Below are positions 1 through 40,464 of a DNA stretch of 41,460 nt, in pieces; positions within the stretch are counted from its first letter, which is position 1, and the number at the start of each line of letters is the position of its first letter. The notes below the pieces were generated by a model that saw nothing but the letters and a program-made list of their open reading frames with translations, made no database searches and was not told the DNA's origin. The translations under genes and the position numbers were made by a program. This DNA comes from a virus (taxonomy: Duplodnaviria; Heunggongvirae; Uroviricota; Caudoviricetes): IMG/VR virus record IMGVR_UViG_2579778753_000003; one strand, written 5' to 3'.

Positions 1-1005
1 TTAATCCCCCGTGGACACTGCGTGGACACTTACGCCACCTTTCAGCGGATTAAGGGCCACCGCATCCTGCAGGTAATCCGGTGCAAAATGCGCATATGCC
101 ATTGTTTGCTGAATGGTTGCGTGACCAAGAATCTTCTGAAGCGCAATAATGTTTCCTCCGTTCATCACAAAATGGCTGGCGAACGTATGCCGCAGCACAT
201 GTGCAGCCTGGCCTTTTGGTAAATCGGGCTTAACTCTTTTCAGCGCCAGGCAGAATTCCCGGTACTTCACCTCAAACAAGCCGCCTGTTTCTCTGGTTTT
301 GATCGCCTCACAAACTGCCTGCGAAATTGGCACTGTTCTCTTCCGGCCATTTTTGGTTTCAAGAAACGTTACACGGTTATGAACTATCTGTTCACCACGA
401 AGCTTACAAGCTTCACTCCAGCGCGCCCCTGTGCTTAAACACAAAAGCGCAACACGCCAGTAGTCGCCCTCCAGTGTATCGAGCAATAGCGCCACTTCCT
501 TCTGTGACAGGAACGCCATTTCTCGTGGAGATACATAAAGAATAGAAATTCCCCTTACTGGATGTTCTGCATCCCAAAGACCTATTTTTTTCAGCACGGT
601 AAACATTCCGGATAACCGATTCATGTACCTGTTAGCAGATGACGGTTTCAATCCTTCAGCTATCTTTTGAGAACGCCACGCGATAATTTTCAGCTTATCA
701 AGATCCACAGCCTGCATATCAGCGCCAAGCTCATTGATTATGTTGCGCAGTTGTTTTCGGTCTTCTTCCGCCTTACGCCTGTGCTGGCCGTGATACATCC
801 ACCACAACTCAAGCAAATCATTTAGCGTTCGACGATCACGGTAGCCCTGTATATATTCCCGCTTTTCAGCGTTCGCCATGATGTAGCGTTCAGTGGCCAC
901 CGCTACCGATTTTTTGTCAAATACCTTACGCACGCGCTTTCCCTTGCGTCCGTTCGGCCTGATGTCCAGCAAATAACGACCATCTTCGAGCTTCTTAATC
1001 GACAT
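1..1005 (-). CDS. int: Tyrosine integrase, P2 Int-like
   Basis: Begins MSIKKLEDGRYLLDIRPNGRKGKR, with a tyrosine-recombinase C-terminal region (ARWSE...HVLRHTFASHF...GHATIQQTMAYAH); GGAGGG Shine-Dalgarno 9 nt upstream. The ORF track extends to 1020 from an upstream Met. Confidence 0.9.
   Translation of the reverse strand: MSIKKLEDGRYLLDIRPNGRKGKRVRKVFDKKSVAVATERYIMANAEKREYIQGYRDRRTLNDLLELWWMYHGQHRRKAEEDRKQLRNIINELGADMQAVDLDKLKIIAWRSQKIAEGLKPSSANRYMNRLSGMFTVLKKIGLWDAEHPVRGISILYVSPREMAFLSQKEVALLLDTLEGDYWRVALLCLSTGARWSEACKLRGEQIVHNRVTFLETKNGRKRTVPISQAVCEAIKTRETGGLFEVKYREFCLALKRVKPDLPKGQAAHVLRHTFASHFVMNGGNIIALQKILGHATIQQTMAYAHFAPDYLQDAVALNPLKGGVSVHAVSTGD
11..29. repeat. Candidate attL core (left copy of 19-bp direct repeat)
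   Basis: gtggacactgcgtggacac here versus gtggtcactgcgtggacac at 40280-40298 (18/19 identical); flanks diverge on both sides. Lies inside the 3' end of int. Confidence 0.4.
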
Positions 1006-4120: not shown

Positions 4121-4243
4121 GAAACCAGAACATGCACACACAAAAAAACCGCTTGCCATGCCGCAATCAGTCAGGTTACATTTCCGCTGCACCTCATAAA
4201 ACGGGTGCCGGGATTTCCACCCCGCTGACAACTACAGCGCACA

Positions 4244-4263
4244 ACCGCGCCAGCGGTTTTTTT
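4244..4263 (+). terminator. Possible short intrinsic terminator
   Basis: accgc-gcca-gcggt hairpin followed by a T7 run, about 125 nt after the 3821-4120 gene. Confidence 0.3.
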
Positions 4264-4442
4264 GTGCGTACTGTATCGCCACGTCTTTTTCGCACACGAA
4301 TTATGGTGGGGCGTACGGGGCCGACTTCGGTCGGGCCGGGTTCTGTAGTTGCCGGTTGTGGAAACCCTGTACGTCTCACCACCCCGAGTTTTCCACCTCT
4401 GGATGGTGAGTTTTCAAAACTTGCAACTACAGAGGCCACACC

Positions 4443-25333: not shown

Positions 25334-25867
25334 ATGATGCACTTAAAAAACATTACTGCTGGCAACCCTAAAACAAAAGAGCAATACCAGCTAACGAAAC
25401 AATTTAACATCAAATGGCTTTATTCAGAGAATGGAAAAAACTGGTATGAGGAACAAAAGAATTTCCAGCCAGACACTTTGAAAATGGTCTATGACCATAA
25501 CGGCGTTATTATTTGTATTGAAAAGGATGTTTCAGCAATTAATCCGGAAGGCGCAAGCGTCGTTGAATTACCTGATATTACAGCAAATCGCCGTGCTGAC
25601 ATTTCGGGTAAATGGATGTTCAAAGATGGCGTAGTGGTAAAGCGAACTTATACCGAGGAAGAGCAGAGGCAGCAGGCGGAAAATGAAAAGCAAAGCCTGC
25701 TACAGCTCGTTAGGGATAAAACCCAGCTATGGGACTCACAGCTACGGCTGGGCATCATTTCCGACGAGAATAAACAAAAATTAACCGAGTGGATGCTCTA
25801 TGCGCAGAAAGTCGAATCTACAGACACCTCCAGCCTGCCAGTAACATTTCCCGAACAACCTGAATGA
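25334..25867 (+). CDS. G: Tail fibre assembly protein (gpG-like), partner of cassette 1
   Basis: 177 aa immediately after the tail fibre gene. Confidence 0.85.
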   Translation: MMHLKNITAGNPKTKEQYQLTKQFNIKWLYSENGKNWYEEQKNFQPDTLKMVYDHNGVIICIEKDVSAINPEGASVVELPDITANRRADISGKWMFKDGVVVKRTYTEEEQRQQAENEKQSLLQLVRDKTQLWDSQLRLGIISDENKQKLTEWMLYAQKVESTDTSSLPVTFPEQPE

Positions 25868-25895
25868 GACAAGGCCCGATAGCGGGCCTTAATTT

Positions 25896-26423
25896 TTATT
25901 CAGGCTTTTGTGGCCATTCAGGATTTGCCGTATCCACACGGCTGACCAGAACACTGTAGCGTTCCCATGCTTCCAGTCGTGTGCGTTCCTCGTCTGTTGC
26001 CATATTCAGCCTGACAGCGCGTTCCAGCGGCTGGATGACTGATTCAGCTTCGGAAAGCAATGCGGCCTTTTGTGATTCGGCTTGTTGTTGCTGTTCGTCT
26101 GCCGTATAAATCCGTTTAACTACAGCTCCATCCTTAAACATCCACTTTCCTGAATCATCAGCGCGGCGGTTGGCTGTAATATCTGGAACCTCAACGACGC
26201 TAAAACCTTCAGGGTTAAGCGTGGAGGCATCTTTAGTGATGGCGACAATAATATTATTTGCATCGTAAACAATCTTTATTGTGTCTGGCTGAAAGTTTTT
26301 CACTTCCTCATACCAGTTTTTTCCGTCCTCAGAGTAAAGCCAGATAACTCCGTGTTTCTTTGTTAACTCATACTGTTCCAGTGTTTTAGCGTTACCCGCT
26401 TTTATGTTCTTTAAGTGCATCAT
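25896..26423 (-). CDS. Alternative tail fibre assembly protein, partner of cassette 2
   Basis: 175 aa, about 50% identical to the gpG-like protein (MMHLKNI.AGN.KT.EQY.LTK...), inverted orientation. Confidence 0.8.
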
Positions 26424-26424
26424 A

Positions 26425-27449
26425 TTAAACGCTCGCTACATTATACCAGGTGCCATTTATATACTTTTGAACGGGTCTGTAATAAACGCCCGCTATATTA
26501 TCGGCAGAGTTGGACCCTGTATCCTGAACATTAATACCAGACAATACATGACCTGACGGGCACTGGAAATTCCATGTTTGCCAGTTGTTCACTCTATAAT
26601 ATTGCTGTGAACCAAGTCGAACATCTTTCACATATCTGGAATCAAAATTGCCATAGTTGCCGGGAATAACTTGCGCACCGCAAAGCCAGTTTCCGTTATT
26701 ATCCATGTACGCCTGACCATCGGTGCCATTGGCTGTCCTTGAATTATTAATCATGTAGATGCCAAATTGCTTATTTCCCAGACCGCCAATCATAAATTTG
26801 CGGTCGGCATGGTCCTGACGGAGCAAAGCCTGAGCACCATCAGTGGATACCGCATTACGTCCCATAATAACGTTCTGGTCACGCATATGAATCCACATGC
26901 CTGTACTGCTGTTAATTAAAAAACGGTTTGCAAATATATCTCCTGTAACATCCAGACCATGCCCCATAGTTATGCGACCAGTTCTGAGATTAAGCGTAAA
27001 GGGGCGTAGTGGCCCTATATCGCCATTTTCCCCCTCATTTTCTCGGGTAGGGATGATATGAAGACATTCTTCAGAACGGCGAAAAATAGCACCAAAAGAT
27101 GAATTAAATATCCTCAGTGCATTGACTGTCGATATTTTTACTTCACTGCTGAAAAGGGCTTTAACAAGAACAGACAAAGCATCCCATTTAAGATTCATCA
27201 GGTCTTTTGTTGTGGTGCTTTGTTTGCTTCTCCATTTGAAATATTCATTGCCGTTGTCGCCTGTTTCAAACCACATGTATGAATCAGTATCGCTGTCGGC
27301 ATCATTTTTAAAACCAATCTTTGCCCAGTCAGTATTCCGAATCCAGGCAAGGATTGAGTCGTTTTCAAAAGTAAGCCCACCGGACAAGATATCGCCTGTC
27401 TTTTGGACGGCGTTACCAGCCTTGTTTACCGTTTCCTGTAAACCGAGGT
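26425..27449 (-). CDS. Alternative tail fibre C-terminal cassette 2 (promoterless in this orientation)
   Basis: Frame is open from the centre through ...[30 protein letters not shown]...; no ATG start; would fuse to the constant tail-fibre N-terminus after inversion. Confidence 0.7.
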
Positions 27450-27450
27450 A

Positions 27451-28475
27451 ACCTCGGTTTACAGGAAACGGTAAACAAGGCTGGTAACGCCGTCCAAAAG
27501 ACAGGCGATATCTTGTCCGGTGGGCTTACTTTTGAAAACGACTCAATCCTTGCCTGGATTCGGAATACTGACTGGGCAAAGATTGGTTTTAAAAATGATG
27601 CCGACAGCGATACTGATTCATACATGTGGTTTGAAACAGGCGACAACGGCAATGAATATTTCAAATGGAGAAGCAAACAAAGCACCACAACAAAAGACCT
27701 GATGAATCTTAAATGGGATGCTTTGTCTGTTCTTGTTAAAGCCCTTTTCAGCAGTGAAGTAAAAATATCGACAGTCAATGCACTGAGGATATTTAATTCA
27801 TCTTTTGGTGCTATTTTTCGCCGTTCTGAAGAATGTCTTCATATCATCCCTACCCGAGAAAATGAGGGGGAAAATGGCGATATAGGGCCACTACGCCCCT
27901 TTACGCTTAATCTCAGAACTGGTCGCATAACTATGGGGCATGGTCTGGATGTTACAGGAGATATATTTGCAAACCGTTTTTTAATTAACAGCAGTACAGG
28001 CATGTGGATTCATATGCGTGACCAGAACGTTATTATGGGACGTAATGCGGTATCCACTGATGGTGCTCAGGCTTTGCTCCGTCAGGACCATGCCGACCGC
28101 AAATTTATGATTGGCGGTCTGGGAAATAAGCAATTTGGCATCTACATGATTAATAATTCAAGGACAGCCAATGGCACCGATGGTCAGGCGTACATGGATA
28201 ATAACGGAAACTGGCTTTGCGGTGCGCAAGTTATTCCCGGCAACTATGGCAATTTTGATTCCAGATATGTGAAAGATGTTCGACTTGGTTCACAGCAATA
28301 TTATAGAGTGAACAACTGGCAAACATGGAATTTCCAGTGCCCGTCAGGTCATGTATTGTCTGGTATTAATGTTCAGGATACAGGGTCCAACTCTGCCGAT
28401 AATATAGCGGGCGTTTATTACAGACCCGTTCAAAAGTATATAAATGGCACCTGGTATAATGTAGCGAGCGTTTAA
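27451..28475 (+). CDS. Duplicate (mirror) copy of cassette 2
   Basis: Identical translation to 26425-27387 on the opposite strand. Confidence 0.65.
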
Positions 28476-28476
28476 T

Positions 28477-29004
28477 ATGATGCACTTAAAGAACATAAAA
28501 GCGGGTAACGCTAAAACACTGGAACAGTATGAGTTAACAAAGAAACACGGAGTTATCTGGCTTTACTCTGAGGACGGAAAAAACTGGTATGAGGAAGTGA
28601 AAAACTTTCAGCCAGACACAATAAAGATTGTTTACGATGCAAATAATATTATTGTCGCCATCACTAAAGATGCCTCCACGCTTAACCCTGAAGGTTTTAG
28701 CGTCGTTGAGGTTCCAGATATTACAGCCAACCGCCGCGCTGATGATTCAGGAAAGTGGATGTTTAAGGATGGAGCTGTAGTTAAACGGATTTATACGGCA
28801 GACGAACAGCAACAACAAGCCGAATCACAAAAGGCCGCATTGCTTTCCGAAGCTGAATCAGTCATCCAGCCGCTGGAACGCGCTGTCAGGCTGAATATGG
28901 CAACAGACGAGGAACGCACACGACTGGAAGCATGGGAACGCTACAGTGTTCTGGTCAGCCGTGTGGATACGGCAAATCCTGAATGGCCACAAAAGCCTGA
29001 ATAA
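28477..29004 (+). CDS. Duplicate (mirror) copy of the alternative tail fibre assembly gene
   Basis: Identical translation to 25896-26423 on the opposite strand. Confidence 0.7.
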
Positions 29005-29032
29005 AAATTAAGGCCCGCTATCGGGCCTTGTC

Positions 29033-29566
29033 TCATTCAGGTTGTTCGGGAAATGTTACTGGCAGGCTGGAGGTGTCTGTAGATTCGACTTTCTGCGCAT
29101 AGAGCATCCACTCGGTTAATTTTTGTTTATTCTCGTCGGAAATGATGCCCAGCCGTAGCTGTGAGTCCCATAGCTGGGTTTTATCCCTAACGAGCTGTAG
29201 CAGGCTTTGCTTTTCATTTTCCGCCTGCTGCCTCTGCTCTTCCTCGGTATAAGTTCGCTTTACCACTACGCCATCTTTGAACATCCATTTACCCGAAATG
29301 TCAGCACGGCGATTTGCTGTAATATCAGGTAATTCAACGACGCTTGCGCCTTCCGGATTAATTGCTGAAACATCCTTTTCAATACAAATAATAACGCCGT
29401 TATGGTCATAGACCATTTTCAAAGTGTCTGGCTGGAAATTCTTTTGTTCCTCATACCAGTTTTTTCCATTCTCTGAATAAAGCCATTTGATGTTAAATTG
29501 TTTCGTTAGCTGGTATTGCTCTTTTGTTTTAGGGTTGCCAGCAGTAATGTTTTTTAAGTGCATCAT
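29033..29566 (-). CDS. Duplicate (mirror) copy of the gpG-like tail fibre assembly gene
   Basis: Identical translation to 25334-25867 on the opposite strand. Confidence 0.7.
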   Translation of the reverse strand: MMHLKNITAGNPKTKEQYQLTKQFNIKWLYSENGKNWYEEQKNFQPDTLKMVYDHNGVIICIEKDVSAINPEGASVVELPDITANRRADISGKWMFKDGVVVKRTYTEEEQRQQAENEKQSLLQLVRDKTQLWDSQLRLGIISDENKQKLTEWMLYAQKVESTDTSSLPVTFPEQPE

Positions 29567-29568
29567 CG

Positions 29569-30508
29569 TTAAATACTCCCCGCGTTATACCACGTCCCAT
29601 TAATGCAATACTGAATTGGCCTTGCCTGAGTTGTATCAATTAATTCATCACGGTTTCCGTTAACTGAACCCGTAACGACATAACCTGACCTGTCAGACCA
29701 GCCGGGACCATTCCATGTCTGAACAGATGACAGACCGCCAAGGCGAATACCTGTAATAAACCTTGAGTTACATTCTGCCTGCGTGTATGCACCAACATCT
29801 CCCGCAGAGGGTTTGCGGGTCGTGGTGTAAAACTCTGACCAGTCAGCCTCAAATCCATAACCATCACGCGCTGAACGATAAAAAATACCGCCGTTCCTGT
29901 AATTCACGCGGAACTGTACAGCAGGGCAGCTCCCCGTATTCATATTGAAGTGGAGGATTAATGTCGATGCGCCACCAATGTTTGCGTTATAGACCCCGCT
30001 ATTCCAGTTCCAGCCAACAGCTTTATCATTTCCGACAGTGCTTCCTGTTTGCCCTAAAGCAAATGCAGGTTGTTGATTTTTCGTGTTGTAGTCTCGTCGC
30101 CAGCCAGGAGCGTAAGCATCACCATGATTAATATAAGTGAATTGAGCGTTAGTAATTCCGCCACCGCTGGACGTGCTCGGCGTGGTAACGCGTATGGTCA
30201 TTGCGCCGCGAGTGCCAATAACTTCCACCACAGCACCTGCAAGACAAATATTTCCGCAACCTGTATCTGTAATGACCTTATTATTTGCATAAGCCCATGA
30301 GCCTTTGCACATCCAGTAAGGATGGTTAAATGCTCCCTGACTCTCCAGCCACGAAATAAATTGCGCGGTTGTCCAGACCTGACTATCGCCACCAATATCC
30401 AGCCATGCGCTATATGCGCGGCAGGCCCCAATATTTTTGGTGAAGGTATCTTTTCCCGGAATATCTGCGCCGTTCTGGTTTTTCTGTAATGCGCCAGAAG
30501 CCTGATTT
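29569..30508 (-). CDS. Duplicate (mirror) copy of cassette 1 (promoterless)
   Basis: Translation identical to the tail-fibre C-terminus; frame is open up to the gixR-like site. Confidence 0.65.
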
Positions 30509-30513
30509 ACCGT

Positions 30514-30539
30514 TTCCTGTAAACCGAGGTTTTAGATAA
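30514..30539. other. Invertase crossover site gixR-like
   Basis: ttcctgtaaacc-ga-ggttttagataa; mirror of the left site with two outer-arm mismatches; 37 bp upstream of the invertase gene. Confidence 0.7.
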
Positions 30540-30575: not shown

Positions 30576-31181
30576 TTGGACGGGAGATTCAGCGTGCTGA
30601 TTGGCTATGTAAGGGTATCAACAAATGACCAGAATACAGACCTGCAACGAAACGCTCTTGTTTGTGCAGGATGTGAACAAATATTTGAAGATAAATTAAG
30701 CGGGACAAAGACAGACCGACCGGGATTAAAACGCGCTTTAAAGCGCCTTCAAAAAGGTGACACGCTGGTTGTCTGGAAACTGGATCGCCTCGGGCGAAGC
30801 ATGAAACATCTGATTTCTCTCGTCGGGGAACTACGGGAGCGAGGAATTAATTTTCGCAGTCTGACCGACAGCATAGATACATCTTCTCCAATGGGGCGTT
30901 TTTTCTTCCACGTGATGGGTGCCCTGGCTGAAATGGAACGTGAATTAATTGTTGAACGTACACTGGCCGGACTGGCGGCAGCACGCGCACGGGGGCGCAC
31001 AGGCGGACGTCGACCGAAGCTGACAAAAGAACAGCATGAGCAAATAGCAAGGCTGATCAAAAACGGGCACGACAGAAAACAACTGGCAATAATTTACGGC
31101 ATTGGTATATCGACGATTTATCGTTACCACCCCGCAGGAGAATCAATCGGAACAATAGAGAAGAGTCAGGAAACAAAATAA
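30576..31181 (+). CDS. Serine DNA invertase (Gin/Cin/Pin/Hin family)
   Basis: LIGYVRVSTNDQNTDLQRNAL...DTLVVWKLDRLGRSMKHLI... with a C-terminal helix-turn-helix (GISTIYRY); an alternative GTG start at 30594 gives the canonical N-terminus. Confidence 0.9.
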   Translation: MDGRFSVLIGYVRVSTNDQNTDLQRNALVCAGCEQIFEDKLSGTKTDRPGLKRALKRLQKGDTLVVWKLDRLGRSMKHLISLVGELRERGINFRSLTDSIDTSSPMGRFFFHVMGALAEMERELIVERTLAGLAAARARGRTGGRRPKLTKEQHEQIARLIKNGHDRKQLAIIYGIGISTIYRYHPAGESIGTIEKSQETK

Positions 31182-36802: not shown

Positions 36803-36959
36803 AGCTTCAGCCCCTTGTATCCGTTAAATGATTCGGCAACAATCATCACCCACCACGCGCGTAATCTCACCCCTGCGCCGTTCTCCCGACCCGGCGACAA
36901 CAAAAAGCAGTACCCCCCTCCGCACGCACATGCGACCATGCCGCACAGGGAGGGAACAG

Positions 36960-38069
36960 ATGACCGACACCACCATGCAATTGCTCAGTCAGGGCACGGC
37001 CCCCGTGAAAATGCCGGATTTTGATATTCTCTCGGAGGGTAAAACGCTGTCAGGCGTGGCGGAGCGCCTGATGAGCCTGTCACTGACCGACAACCGGGGA
37101 TTTGAGGCGGACCAGCTCACCATCACGCTGGATGATGCGGATGGTCAGTTGCAGCTACCGCCACGGGGCGCGCGCCTGACGGTTCTCATTGGCTGGAAAG
37201 GAGAACCGCTGACAGAAAAAGGCACTTACATTGTTGATGAAGTCGCTCACGAAGGACCGCCGGACAGGCTGACTGTTTCAGCCAGAAGCGCAGATTTTCG
37301 GGATGAATTTAACGTTAAACGTGAGGTGTCCTGGCATGATGTGACCGTTGAGCGTGTGGTATCCGCCATCGCTCATCGGTATGGTCTGAAACCACAAATC
37401 AGCGAAATGCTGATGGATATCGAAATCGACCACGCCGACCAGACCGAAGAAAGCGACATGTCCTTCCTTACGCGCATGGCGGAAATGCTGGGCGCAATCA
37501 CCACGGTAAAAAGCGGCAATCTGTTATTCATCATGCCAGGTGGTGGCGTGAACGCACAGGGCCAGCCGTTGCCCTCGTTCGCCATTACACGCAGCAGCGG
37601 CGATCGCCATCAGTTCCGTATTGCTGACCGCGAGGCGTATACGGGGGTACGCGCCTACTGGCTTGATCTTAATTACGGGAAAAAGAAAAAAGTCAGCGTG
37701 AAACGCCGCAAACCACCAAAACCCCAAAAGGAGAAAAGCAGCAGCCGTGAAGGTGATTATATGGAAGGCGCGGAAGGCAATGTGTTTGTGTTACGCAAGA
37801 CCTATCAGAACGAACAGGCAGCAAGACGCGCAGCGGCGGCAAAGTGGCAGCAACTACAACGCGGAGCCGCATCATTCTCCATCACGCTGGCGCGTGGACG
37901 TGCAGAACTCTACCCCGAAATGCATGGTACGGTAACAGGATTTAAAAGCGAGATTGATAATCAGGACTGGATCATTGCAAAAGCCGAGCACACTATTGAT
38001 AACAGCGGCTTTACCACGCAGCTTGAGCTTGAGGCAAAAATCCCGGAATGGATAGCGGAAACAGAGTGA
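36960..38069 (+). CDS. D: Tail protein / late control protein D (P2 gpD-like)
   Basis: ATG at 36960 with AGGGAGGG upstream (the track ORF from 36828 has no Shine-Dalgarno); about 369 aa. Confidence 0.8.
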   Translation: MTDTTMQLLSQGTAPVKMPDFDILSEGKTLSGVAERLMSLSLTDNRGFEADQLTITLDDADGQLQLPPRGARLTVLIGWKGEPLTEKGTYIVDEVAHEGPPDRLTVSARSADFRDEFNVKREVSWHDVTVERVVSAIAHRYGLKPQISEMLMDIEIDHADQTEESDMSFLTRMAEMLGAITTVKSGNLLFIMPGGGVNAQGQPLPSFAITRSSGDRHQFRIADREAYTGVRAYWLDLNYGKKKKVSVKRRKPPKPQKEKSSSREGDYMEGAEGNVFVLRKTYQNEQAARRAAAAKWQQLQRGAASFSITLARGRAELYPEMHGTVTGFKSEIDNQDWIIAKAEHTIDNSGFTTQLELEAKIPEWIAETE

Positions 38070-38111: not shown

Positions 38112-38372
38112 ATGTTCCGTTGTCCGCTTTGTGGCGCATCTGCCCGTATCCGCACCAGTCGTCCGGAAAATGATTCAAACACCGTGCGGCAAAAGTATTA
38201 CCAGTGTAACAATCTGGAATGCGGCGTATGCTTCTCAACACTGGAAGCCTTCCATAAATTCACATCAAAACACGCCTCCGGCGTTCACTCTTCAGAAGGT
38301 ATCCCGTGGCATGAGCTGCCAGCTTCACACAGGGGAAACAATCAGATGAGTTTGCCTTTACCTCAGAATTAA
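38112..38372 (+). CDS. ogr: Late-gene transcription activator, Ogr/Delta zinc-finger family
   Basis: MFRCPLCGASARIRTSR...KYYQCNNLECGVCFST: a C4 zinc finger as in recalled P2 Ogr (MFHCPLC...YHQCQNVNCSATF). Confidence 0.85.
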   Translation: MFRCPLCGASARIRTSRPENDSNTVRQKYYQCNNLECGVCFSTLEAFHKFTSKHASGVHSSEGIPWHELPASHRGNNQMSLPLPQN

Positions 38373-38562
38373 CAGGCAGAATTGCCGGAGTAACAAAAAA
38401 GCGATAGATTACGCGCGGGTGCCTTTCGGCTGATGGTCGGAGGGAATACCCGATGGCCGGATGTGGAAAGGCCCCGGAAAACACTTTTGTTTAACCGAGG
38501 CCCTAACCGTCTACCCTAAGCAAGTGATAGGTTAGCGCCTCCCCGAAAAAGGAGCAAGCGCT

Positions 38563-38703
38563 ATGTCGCAAAAATCGCTTACGGCCATCACGTTCTGCGT
38601 GACGGTAATCCTCATCATCTGGATGCTGCACGGTTCGCTGTGTGAAATACGGATGAGCTTCTGGGGAGCGGAGTTTGCGGCGTTCTTACAGTGTAAGCAG
38701 TAA
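38563..38703 (+). CDS. Hok/Gef-family type I toxin (putative)
   Basis: 46 aa: MSQKSLTAITFCVTVILIIWMLHGSLCEIRMSFWGAEFAAFLQCKQ; membrane helix plus SLCEIR and E.AAF as in Hok (SLCEIR...EVAAFMAYE); AGGAG Shine-Dalgarno; GC-rich hairpin at 38712-38733 downstream. Confidence 0.65.
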   Translation: MSQKSLTAITFCVTVILIIWMLHGSLCEIRMSFWGAEFAAFLQCKQ

Positions 38704-38965
38704 GGAAACCGCGACGGGGGAGTAATCCCCCGTCAATCGGTTGCTAGGGTAAGGTCGATAAGGCACCCTATCTCACAGCTCTAAATGCAAAAATTCCATG
38801 AAACTGTGGGATTTTTGCATCACATACTGATACAGACCAGCCCTTCTATATGCCTCACTCTATACCAGCTAATCAATTGACACTTATCAATAAAAATAAA
38901 TCTGATAAAATCAAAATGTTTTGTAACAAATATCAACTCGTATTAATCCAAAGGAGGCGGATTAC

Positions 38966-39298
38966 ATGGCATTAATCAAATGTCCTGAATGCCAGAAAGA
39001 GGTGAGCGATTCAGCATTGTATTGCCCTGCTTGTGGTAAACAACTGCAAAAACTTAAGCGTTCATTTTTTGGACGGATCATTAAGTGGGTTTTTATATTA
39101 TTTAATATTTTTATGATCTATACGCTTTTAGTTGGACTAGGAGGCACTAGTGAAATAATAAATAATGCCACATCCGATGCCGAAAAAGCCGGTGCAGTTA
39201 TTGGTACAGGCTTAGGTTTAATTACCATTGGAAGCTTATGGGTTATTGGCGATATCATTATCGGAATTTTAGTATTTCTTACTAAACCAAAGGGATAA
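38966..39298 (+). CDS. Zinc-ribbon membrane protein, unknown function
   Basis: 110 aa; CPEC...CPAC zinc ribbon followed by two hydrophobic helices; AGGAGG Shine-Dalgarno; AT-rich. Confidence 0.6.
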   Translation: MALIKCPECQKEVSDSALYCPACGKQLQKLKRSFFGRIIKWVFILFNIFMIYTLLVGLGGTSEIINNATSDAEKAGAVIGTGLGLITIGSLWVIGDIIIGILVFLTKPKG

Positions 39299-39302
39299 TA
39301 AA

Positions 39303-40196
39303 ATGAAAAATATAATTTTTTCTATAGGTGCATCATTTATATCAATTAGTGTACTGCCTGTTCACGCAGCAACTGAACATAAGAACTTCAATGCAGTACT
39401 CCAGTGCCGAGCAATAGAAAATAATAAAGACAGACTTTCTTGTTACGATAAGTCAATACAACCGACTCGAACGAAAGTTGCTGAAAAATTCGAAAGCAGA
39501 GATCAATGCCCTGATGAGAAAGATGATGATAGACGTTTATCTTGTTATGATCGTTTCTTTTCTCCAACATTTACTCCATCTGTAAACTCAAAATCTAAAA
39601 CGGAAAAGCCAGTAACAACAGAGGCTCAGCAACCAAATCTTTCTGAGATATCTAAATGTCGTGCAGAAAATGATAAAGAAGCCAGACTAAACTGCTACGA
39701 TAAACTATTCCCACAGGATAAAATCGTTCAAGCTGAATCAAAATTAGAGAAAGCCACAGATGTAGGAAAATGGCACACATCCATTACTACATCGCCAATT
39801 GATGATTCGAAAAATGTAATTTTATCGTTAGAAAGTGATGATTATATCAGAACTCCATTTGGAGAAGCGGTTACTCCTACTCTTTTTATAGCTTGCCGAG
39901 AAAAGAAAACCGAAGTATTTCTTAGTTGGGATGTATATTTAGGCCTTGAACAAACCAGCATGCTTTATCGCCTTGATAAACAGAAAGCAGTTGAGCGAAA
40001 CTGGCTAGTATCTACAGATACAAAGGCTGTTTTTTATAAAGGTAATGACATTGATTTCATCCGAAAACTAGCCAACTCAAGCAAAATGTATACAAAAATA
40101 ACGCCTTATAATGAGAGCCCCGTAAGTGCAACTTTCAATTTAAACGGCCTGTCAAACGCGCTAAAACCGCTTCAAGCTGCTTGTAACTGGAAATAG
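39303..40196 (+). CDS. Secreted protein with three cysteine-pair repeats, unknown function
   Basis: 297 aa; signal peptide (cleavage after VHA), three copies of a C-x8/9-RL-x-CYD-K/R motif, then a roughly 150-aa C-terminal domain; AT-rich. Confidence 0.65.
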   Translation: MKNIIFSIGASFISISVLPVHAATEHKNFNAVLQCRAIENNKDRLSCYDKSIQPTRTKVAEKFESRDQCPDEKDDDRRLSCYDRFFSPTFTPSVNSKSKTEKPVTTEAQQPNLSEISKCRAENDKEARLNCYDKLFPQDKIVQAESKLEKATDVGKWHTSITTSPIDDSKNVILSLESDDYIRTPFGEAVTPTLFIACREKKTEVFLSWDVYLGLEQTSMLYRLDKQKAVERNWLVSTDTKAVFYKGNDIDFIRKLANSSKMYTKITPYNESPVSATFNLNGLSNALKPLQAACNWK

Positions 40197-40279
40197 TATT
40201 AAATCATGTGGCTTAGCCACAATCACAGATAACACAAAGCCCGTGAAAACGGGCTTTGTGTTATCTGTAACTCGAAAAT

Positions 40280-40298
40280 GTGGTCACTGCGTGGACAC
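40280..40298. repeat. Candidate attR core (right copy of 19-bp direct repeat)
   Basis: gtggtcactgcgtggacac versus 11-29 (18/19 identical); sits at the transition from AT-rich cargo to the host flk region. Confidence 0.4.
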
Positions 40299-40464
40299 GC
40301 GCTGACATAAATCCTTTTACATCAATAAATTAAGTCATCATTTTTTTCATCAACAAGGATTTTCACGTTTGTGTTACCTGTATGAGACGAGAGTTAACCG
40401 GACAAGTGTGCCATAATCTCGCGGCCAGGCATACTTGCGAAGATTTCAGGTATAAGGATACGTA

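Follow-up and report, generated by a model that had tools for sequence, protein, structure and literature searches.

The stretch of DNA analyzed here (hereafter, the window; 41,460 nt) is an E. coli chromosomal segment that carries a P2-like (Peduoviridae) prophage. In the right part of this prophage, gpD (positions 36828–38069) is followed by ogr (38112–38372; Pfam Ogr_Delta, 52.4 bits) and, 190 nt after the ogr stop, by the start of a short open reading frame (ORF), hereafter hok. The window sequence and ORF list give a product of 46 aa, MSQKSLTAITFCVTVILIIWMLHGSLCEIRMSFWGAEFAAFLQCKQ, in which the motifs SLCEIR and E.AAF (here, EFAAF) occupy residues 25–30 and 37–41, respectively. A first-pass annotation, made from the letters of the sequence, had described a Hok-like ORF with these motifs 190 bp after ogr, and had proposed a Hok/Gef-like type I toxin locus at 38400–38760. 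The ORF is present as described. The locus, too, lies where it was proposed, but is larger: it runs from the putative hok promoter (beginning at 38382) to at least the 3' fold-back element, fbi (ending at 38768). The features discussed below are listed in Table 1.

Table 1. Position, strand and character of the features that make up the hok locus in the window.
Feature	Position	Strand	Description
Putative hok promoter	38382–38410	+	-35 TTGCCG at 38382–38387, 17-nt spacer, -10 TAGATT at 38405–38410
tac (mRNA 5' end)	38417–38431	+	Predicted to pair with fbi (full-length RNA) or with 38466–38475 (3'-trimmed RNA)
Upstream ORF 1	38433–38519	+	ATG start, 28 codons; TAA stop 43 nt before the hok ATG
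Upstream ORF 2	38461–38535	+	ATG start, 24 codons; TAG stop 27 nt before the hok ATG
Predicted Sok RNA	38461–38521	-	About 61 nt; placed by homology to sokB and sokC, from which the ends are taken
Conserved CCGAGGCCCU	38495–38504	+	Counterpart of the R1 mok ribosome-binding site GAGG; predicted to pair with 38468–38477 in the closed RNA
Putative Sok promoter	38529–38557	-	-35 TTGCTC at 38557–38552, 17-nt spacer, -10 TAACCT at 38534–38529
Masking hairpin	38533–38563	+	Predicted; anti-SD CUCC (38539–38542) pairs with GGAG (38551–38554)
hok ORF	38563–38703	+	46 aa; a single membrane helix and, in the periplasm, a short tail that contains Cys27 and Cys44
Post-stop hairpin	38713–38734	+	9 bp (38713–38721 with 38726–38734), GUAA loop
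3' partner of second long-range helix	38736–38751	+	Predicted to tie up the Sok-target region 38512–38528
fbi	38753–38768	+	Complement of tac, with U38759 bulged; from the predicted fold and the variants
A/U-rich hairpin	38785–38820	+	15 bp, -19.8 kcal/mol, z = -5.4

Profile and sequence comparisons place the 46-aa peptide in the Hok/Gef family. Alignment to the family profile had been proposed in the first-pass annotation, and Pfam HOK_GEF (PF01848) indeed matches the peptide above its gathering score of 22 (30.1 bits, E 3.7e-7), over peptide residues 7–44 and profile positions 5–42 of 42. PHROG 251 also matches (82.8 bits); the description that it attaches to the ORF, 'MokW-like host killing', is a label only, derived from the hokW-sokW name. 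Among the NCBIfam models, the best is HokA (NF007290), at 35.8 bits against a curated cut-off of 89, and the model of the Hok subfamily (NF007279) scores 23.6 bits against a curated cut-off of 73. Since both scores fall below their cut-offs, we regard the ORF as a member of the wider family that belongs to a distinct subfamily, being neither HokA nor R1-type Hok. Direct comparison with R1 Hok by BLASTP gives 39% identity over 31 residues (E 2e-7). Seven Hok residues are reported to be more than 80% conserved—M1, C16, T18, L30, C31, E32 and E41 in the numbering of a recent catalogue of Hok peptides (Escalera-Maurer et al., bioRxiv 10.1101/2025.08.07.668861)—and alignment with R1 Hok finds all seven in the window peptide, as M1, C12, T14, L26, C27, E28 and E37. 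Searches with the 46-aa peptide gave no model match in PADLOC and no sequence match in the PDB.

The homology to known hok loci extends well beyond the coding sequence. Alignment of the window with R1, hokB and hokC reveals blocks that are common to all four: the hok -10, tac (GGGTGCC), AGCCCCG, CCGAGGC, and the AAGGAG ribosome-binding site. The fbi motif at the 3' end, GGCACCC, is common to the window and hokB only. The -10 of the putative hok promoter, TAGATT, aligns with TATGAT in R1, TATAAT in hokC and TAGGAT in hokB, and the related copy of the locus in Stx phages carries TTGCCC-17-TAGATT in another genetic context. Agreement with the promoter consensus is weak (8 of 12 positions), and the promoter was read from the sequence: a consensus promoter and terminator scan called neither a hok nor a Sok promoter here, reporting only the post-stop hairpin, read on the minus strand. 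The start of transcription is predicted at ~38417. From that position to 38576, the plus strand of the window is matched end to end by RF01794, an Rfam model named "sok", at 43 bits (E 6e-8), which is below its gathering score of 59. On the hok-sense strand of known loci, the same model gives 118 bits for K-12 hokC, 110 bits for K-12 hokB and 87 bits for an R1-type plasmid; other members of the window's Hok subfamily score 42–54 bits. As the model matches hokC, hokB and R1 on the hok strand, it represents the hok-sense leader.

Substitutions within the ORF follow the pattern of a coding sequence. Replacement changes are rarer than silent ones (pN/pS 0–0.4, mostly 0–0.3), with 7 silent changes against 1 replacement in one locus (L081) and 4 against 0 in another example. 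Purifying selection thus acts on the Hok peptide. This pattern, together with the Pfam match, the leader homology to R1, hokB and hokC that continues well past the ORF, and the Rfam controls, refutes for practical purposes the idea of a chance frame in structured sequence that belongs to the 3' untranslated region or terminator of ogr. Such an idea has a certain appeal for an ORF that is very short and lies in GC-rich, highly structured DNA; it is further contradicted by the reported toxicity of near-identical peptides and by the Stx phages, in which the module adjoins lom without any ogr. We therefore give it almost no credence.

The RNA expected from this locus is highly structured, in agreement with the structured leader noted in the first-pass annotation. 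A 362-nt RNA covering 38417–38778 folds at -159.4 kcal/mol (z = -6.6 against shuffled sequences), and four elements of the predicted fold are of particular interest. Firstly, in the minimum-energy fold the 5' end closes onto the 3' end: tac forms 15 predicted pairs with fbi (38417–38431 with 38753–38768). Secondly, a second long-range helix, also of 15 predicted pairs, joins 38512–38528 to 38736–38751 in the full-length RNA. Thirdly, the hok Shine-Dalgarno sequence (AGGAG, 38550–38554) is masked in a local hairpin, with the A of the hok start codon in the base of its stem. Finally, a hairpin follows shortly after the hok stop codon. This last element had been seen before as a 7-bp hairpin at 38712–38733 and likened to a fold-back element of hok mRNA. 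The hairpin exists, but its size and position require correction, and the comparison does not hold up: the fold-back element proper is fbi, and the noted hairpin corresponds to the protective stem that follows the stop codon. In R1, the protective role of the post-stop hairpin is known (PMC9841398); by analogy, the stem in the window is likely to be both the 3' end-point and the protector of a trimmed, active mRNA.

When the RNA is trimmed in silico at 38738 (leaving 38417–38738), the predicted structure changes: the centroid fold pairs tac with 38466–38475, and the same stem is preferred in the RNAalifold consensus of an alignment of 48 variants. In these models, the alternative pairing of tac is the tac/ucb switch of R1.

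The variants on which this and the following comparisons draw comprise 7 loci from representative genomes, 80 loci from IMG/VR and some further loci, dereplicated to 48 distinct sequences. (Three of the seven representative-genome loci come from records titled Planococcaceae, Vagococcus and Xanthomonas; these probably reflect contamination with contigs of E. coli, and are not taken as taxonomic evidence.) The fold predicted from the window sequence was imposed on all 48 sequences, with slid 3' partners and shuffled sequences as controls. Standard pairs were observed in 95.9% of paired cells, against 39–45% with slid partners and 95.1% after shuffling, a percentage that is inflated by the derivation of the tested structure from one of the aligned sequences. 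Pairs in which both sides have changed number 19, against 4–10 in the slid and 5.8 in the shuffled controls.

The individual helices differ in how they have been kept. The tac–fbi helix is 96.7% paired among the 48 variants; its changes are mainly between G-C and G-U, with a single change on both sides (C-G to U-A, in Salmonella diarizonae). The two helices of the masking hairpin (helices 6 and 7) are 98–100% paired and show one-sided changes only. The post-stop hairpin is 99.8% paired and contains three compensatory pairs, including G-C to A-U in 10 variants and A-U to G-C or C-G in 7. The second long-range helix (helix 5) contains six pairs with changes on both sides, one example being C-G in 25 variants, U-A in 10 and U-G in 8. 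As a prediction, then, the R1-type closure of the full-length mRNA by tac and fbi is found in the window and is kept across the 48 variants.

Transcription beyond fbi may end differently in the window than in most of its relatives. In P88 and most other loci, CCCGCAG-CGTAAAAA-CTGCGGG and the run of T behind it form a classic terminator ~25 nt after fbi, and the sequences diverge beyond it. The window lineage is without this terminator and has, instead, the 15-bp A/U-rich hairpin listed in Table 1, which could possibly mark the end of the hok transcript.

The first-pass annotation had also expected an antisense, Sok-like RNA that it was unable to assign by eye. By homology, such an RNA can be assigned to the minus strand: when aligned, the annotated sokB and sokC RNAs of K-12 both map onto exactly 38461–38521, and we predict that Sok runs from ~38521 to 38461. 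The predicted RNA has the shape expected of Sok, with a free tail and a hairpin: 13 single-stranded nucleotides at the 5' end are followed by a stem-loop and then UUUCC (-23.2 kcal/mol, z = -2.9). An antisense promoter prediction had been suggested as well. The scan yielded none, but a candidate, TTGCTC-17-TAACCT, can be placed by homology: it is positionally homologous to the sokB promoter and to the Sok promoter of R1. It is weak by consensus (6 of 12 positions). The complement of its -10 region, AGGTTAG, is invariant in all 48 variants. With a weak consensus and no call from the scan, the assignment of Sok rests on homology and conservation.

One expected element is missing. An overlapping mok frame had been anticipated in the first-pass annotation; a canonical mok was sought in all three frames of the window and in the 48 variants, and was found in none. 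The position of the mok ATG in R1 and hokC is occupied by TACC in the window, and no variant has a start codon there. The GAGG box itself is kept (38498–38501), with no ATG, GTG or TTG at a distance of 4–12 nt after it; in R1, this box is the ribosome-binding site of mok, and the mok start lies after it (PMC9841398). The window does contain two short upstream ORFs, both of which stop before hok. The ATG of upstream ORF 1 opens a frame of 70–87 codons that runs into hok in 9 of the 48 variants. Upstream ORF 2 has its stop codon at the base of the masking hairpin, with an end point that varies between variants, and is a possible stand-in for mok. Altogether, a frame into hok is found in only 12 of 48 variants and starts from two different ATGs; elsewhere, the frames stop 16–57 nt short of the hok ATG. 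The Citrobacter braakii variant has a frame that begins with GTG and whose stop overlaps the start of hok in the sequence TGATG.

These observations matter for whether the toxin is made. In R1, mok must be translated at least as far as the hok ribosome-binding site, and premature mok stops abolish toxicity (PMC9841398). Since the upstream ORFs of the window stop early, the native RNA might, by R1 rules, translate the toxin poorly. Either this subfamily opens the hok ribosome-binding site in a different way, or its native RNA is poorly translated. The second reading can be taken further, to a silenced or decaying relic with a missing or truncated mok and a Hok that is no longer translated from its own RNA, as at several chromosomal hok loci of K-12. 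The absence of the canonical mok start from all 48 variants, the variable ends of the upstream ORFs (mostly 16–57 nt short of hok), the R1 stop mutants and the lack of the classic terminator in the window lineage all fit such a relic. A dead toxin, however, would not require its antidote promoter to be conserved, nor would it require a fold-back lock, and here the Sok -10 is invariant in 48 of 48 variants, and the tac–fbi helix, the masking hairpin and the post-stop hairpin are maintained, partly by compensatory changes. Purifying selection on the peptide, a placement behind ogr that is fixed (86 of 90 loci), and carriage by the complete phage P88 genome also speak against decay. On balance, we consider a relic improbable.

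The position after ogr is a property of the lineage. In 86 of 90 loci, an Ogr homologue is encoded on the same strand within ~560 nt upstream, at a distance of 193–195 nt in 83 of the 90, and phage P88 carries the locus within its complete, circular genome. The hok/sok locus is therefore a standing module of the cargo region between ogr and attR in a lineage of P2-like phages. In the window, the description of the locus as right-end cargo is apt in that it lies near the right end of the prophage and after ogr, but it is not the terminal cargo: two AT-rich genes, zinc-ribbon and VasI/TagO-like (38966–40196), lie between hok and the likely attR near 40340. DNA of K-12 type (the pdxB 5' end and the pdxB–flk spacer) resumes only at ~40343, the right junction.

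An attR much closer to hok, at 38766–38778, was also considered. Two observations spoke for this candidate: (i) it is here that the similarity to P88 and other P2-like prophages ends, and (ii) CCCTATCTCAC flanks a RES-gene insertion in strain EC02. The candidate was rejected, given that CCCTATCTCAC is absent near attL (the left junction) in strain ARS-C101, and that K-12-type pdxB and pdxB–flk DNA does not resume until ~40343. Further, the island at 38779–40340 is carried by 249 genomes; in all four that were inspected, the prophage with hok lies to the left of the island.

The locus is neither rare nor new. A 451-nt query (38380–38830) matches 1750 of 5426 complete E. coli genomes (about a third), and 198 phage records, including P88, 500465-2, Chuche, P884B11 and Citrobacter phage Shae_phiSM. 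Stx2a phages carry an 82%-identical copy that adjoins lom, without ogr. E. coli strain ARS-C101 is 100% identical to the window over the whole query, and RefSeq names its ORF "Hok/Gef family protein" (WP_000078920.1). The locus is thus an ordinary one, already catalogued through RefSeq and phage-record annotation and with its exact peptide in print: an identical peptide appears in the supplement of Escalera-Maurer et al. as id 1628 of Hok cluster 72, with no difference from the window Hok at the peptide level (bioRxiv 10.1101/2025.08.07.668861).

The same cluster contains peptide 1621, a V15A variant of 1628, and peptide 1589, the Stx-phage variant; constructs of both, 72_1621 and 72_1589, were cloned behind a promoter that responds to arabinose and tested (bioRxiv 10.1101/2025.08.07.668861). 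The text of the catalogue names only three constructs as non-toxic, all of them others, by which the toxicity of 72_1621 and 72_1589 is implied. These assays employed a ribosome-binding site from the vector, and the native leader was not used (bioRxiv 10.1101/2025.08.07.668861). The toxicity test under an inducible promoter that was put forward in the first-pass annotation has, in effect, been done, on the one-residue V15A variant. The catalogue also reports an enrichment of hok in prophages; mok, Sok and mRNA structure were deliberately placed outside its analysis, and its text contains no occurrence of P2-like phages or of ogr linkage (bioRxiv 10.1101/2025.08.07.668861). Taken together, the Pfam match, the annotation in RefSeq, a leader homologous to those of R1, hokB and hokC, and the published toxicity of near-identical peptides bear out the proposal of a Hok/Gef-like type I toxin locus.

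How closely does the window resemble characterized systems? It shares with the R1 hok/sok/mok locus (parB) a Hok-family peptide, the predicted pairing of a 5' tac with a 3' fbi, a masked AAGGAG site, a post-stop hairpin, the position of the putative antisense RNA, and a ucb-like switch region (38466–38477) whose predicted partner is either the GAGG box or tac. The differences from R1 are (i) the want of a mok ATG after the GAGG box and of any frame that reaches hok, (ii) a toxin of 46 aa rather than 52 aa, (iii) a leader in which the stretch from the Sok -10 to the hok ribosome-binding site has 9 nt fewer, with the result that the Sok -35 overlaps this site, (iv) carriage by a prophage rather than by a plasmid, and (v) the divergence of the leader (43 against 87 bits with the Rfam model). 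The K-12 hokB/mokB/sokB and hokC/mokC/sokC loci have the same leader architecture, with SokB and SokC aligned exactly to 38461–38521, and hokB also shares the fbi motif GGCACCC; they differ from the window in their annotated mok frames.

A further comparison concerns hokW-sokW of the Stx2 prophage Sp5, which is likewise a prophage-borne hok/sok locus and has been characterized as a toxin-antitoxin pair of type I that relies in part on RNase III and Hfq (Takada et al. 2021, PMC8621323). HokW, however, is 51 aa in length and starts MKQQKAM (primer YO-357), behind a hokC-like leader, GCGGGTGCTTGAGGC (PMC8621323). Identity of the two loci was accordingly rejected, the primers and the stated length showing a different, hokC-like toxin of 51 aa. 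The Stx-phage copy of the window's own subfamily (82% identical, adjoining lom) is a locus separate from hokW-sokW.

Nevertheless, hokW-sokW raises the question of whom the module serves, since in Sp5, once the prophage is induced, it accelerates lysis and raises the release of phage twofold (PMC8621323). By extension, the window module might mainly assist its own lytic cycle, as a helper of lysis and release, rather than serve retention or defence. The toxin on which this extension leans is the different one just described, and nothing ties the window locus to late-gene control: it has promoter-like elements of its own after ogr. We therefore regard a mainly lytic function as doubtful, and a contribution to the timing of lysis, as for hokW-sokW, as possible. 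This alternative bears on biological role alone; the molecular mechanism could be the same.

The explanation that we favor for the whole is that of a hok/sok-type type I toxin-antitoxin module, standing cargo of a P2-like phage lineage, which works by an R1-like mechanism; we assign it a probability of roughly 0.85. Under this explanation, the weak promoter upstream of tac would give rise to an mRNA of ~350–400 nt that begins near 38417. Once transcribed, fbi would pair with tac, and 38512–38528 with 38736–38751, producing an RNA that is predicted to be closed, stable and untranslatable. By analogy with R1, slow trimming from the 3' end as far as the post-stop hairpin would then strip away both 3' partners, upon which tac would refold onto 38466–38475 and the Sok target would become exposed. 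As long as the short-lived Sok is made, it would pair with the leader (~38521 to 38461) and direct the mRNA to decay by RNase III. Should synthesis of Sok stop, the stored mRNA would be translated, and the 46-aa Hok would insert into the inner membrane and kill the cell. Loss of the prophage, or the shut-off of host transcription by an infecting phage, are possible triggers. The step by which AGGAG (38550–38554) is released from CUCC (38539–38542) would also have to be supplied, and upstream ORF 2 is one candidate for it.

The benefit of such a module to its carrier is likely to be prophage retention through the killing of cured cells, abortive defence, or both; the PADLOC search lends defence no direct support. 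Post-segregational killing and phage exclusion had been mentioned in the first-pass annotation for loci of this type; for the present locus, we infer them from its relatives.

The value of the locus as a discovery is small, the gene being annotated and the exact peptide catalogued. The absence of mok is a small oddity and the one real departure from R1. As a prophage-borne Hok, hok at the fixed site after ogr is very common, and the role of hok in prophages has been stated to be open.

The same absence allows a more tentative reading, which we put forward as a possibility and rate below even odds: that cluster 72, in both its ogr-linked (P2-like) and lom-linked (Stx-phage) forms, is a naturally mok-less hok/sok in which the R1 switch is kept and the translation of hok is opened by other means. 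One means may be the short upstream ORFs, which vary and stop close to the masking hairpin. Alternatively, the GAGG box, once freed, may act as a ribosome standby site that is occluded by Sok; occlusion of a standby site has been proposed for tisB/istR-1. If the mok-less reading is true, coupling to mok would not be a universal requirement of the Hok family. In keeping the whole RNA switch of R1 without mok, the subfamily would offer a convenient natural test of how general mok coupling is.

The prophage appears to be inserted within the first few codons of pdxB: a stub of the original pdxB start (GTG AAA ATC CTT GTT GAT GAA...) lies at the right junction, and at the left junction of E. coli strain ARS-C101 pdxB is annotated with a new, phage-derived TTG start. 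The int-terminal sequence GTGGACAC-TGC-GTGGACAC recurs, matching at 18 of 19 positions, approximately 45 nt left of the right junction. The GTGGACAC repeats presumably resemble P2 Int arm repeats, and the two copies may be arm-type integrase binding sites. Coordinates are listed in the table.

Coordinates of features in the window and in related loci (L handles)
Feature	Coordinates	Strand	Remarks
GTGGACAC-TGC-GTGGACAC	11-29		within int 3' end
isrK, then C4 antisense RNA	4189-4386	+	Rfam, both above gathering score
Repeat pairs	25334-30530	both orientations	around tail-fibre region
201-aa ORF	30576-31181		adjoins repeats
11-bp repeat CCCTATCTCAC (flanks RES-family module in relatives)	38766-38776		carriers: L006 (strain EC02) 1000-2520; L099 (strain WAT)
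Two AT-rich genes after hok	38966-40196		~35% GC
Second GTGGACAC-TGC-GTGGACAC copy	40280-40298
Right junction, pdxB stub	40343-40365
Left junction, ARS-C101	L097 2300-2482
lom-adjacent hok copy	L008 1500-1880		Stx phage Lyz12581Vzw; also about 165 Stx phage records

Two further regions of the prophage contain recognizable elements. Firstly, the early region matches isrK (63.6 bits) and, downstream, C4 antisense RNA (80.5 bits). Secondly, several repeat pairs of 49–96 nt each surround the tail-fibre region; their fixed spacings (3143 and 3081 nt), their occurrence in both orientations and their position beside a 201-aa ORF suggest that tail-fibre cassettes are duplicated or invertible.

Of the two genes 3' of hok, one encodes a 110-aa membrane protein with a zinc-ribbon. 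The other specifies a VasI/TagO-like product of 297 aa, which scores 88.6 bits on Pfam VasI; no type VI secretion genes are found in its vicinity. The island with both genes was detected in 249 E. coli genomes; in all four of the carriers inspected the P2-like prophage lies on its left side, which makes the island look like cargo of the phage and not like a piece of host DNA. In some relatives, a different module (~1.5 kb, with a RES-family NAD+ phosphorylase gene) is inserted immediately 3' of fbi, the fold-back inhibitory element of the hok mRNA, and is flanked on both sides by the 11-bp direct repeat CCCTATCTCAC. No antitoxin-like partner is annotated next to the phosphorylase gene.

The hok locus of this E. 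coli phage also occurs, at 74–100% identity, in contigs (L010, L011 and L014) filed as Planococcaceae, Vagococcus and Xanthomonas pisi; these are most likely enterobacterial contigs contaminating the respective assemblies. In Stx2a-converting phages, a copy of the same hok subfamily (82% identical) adjoins lom. This locus is separate from the previously studied hokW-sokW of Sp5 and 933W-type phages, and thus Stx2a-converting phages may carry two different hok loci.
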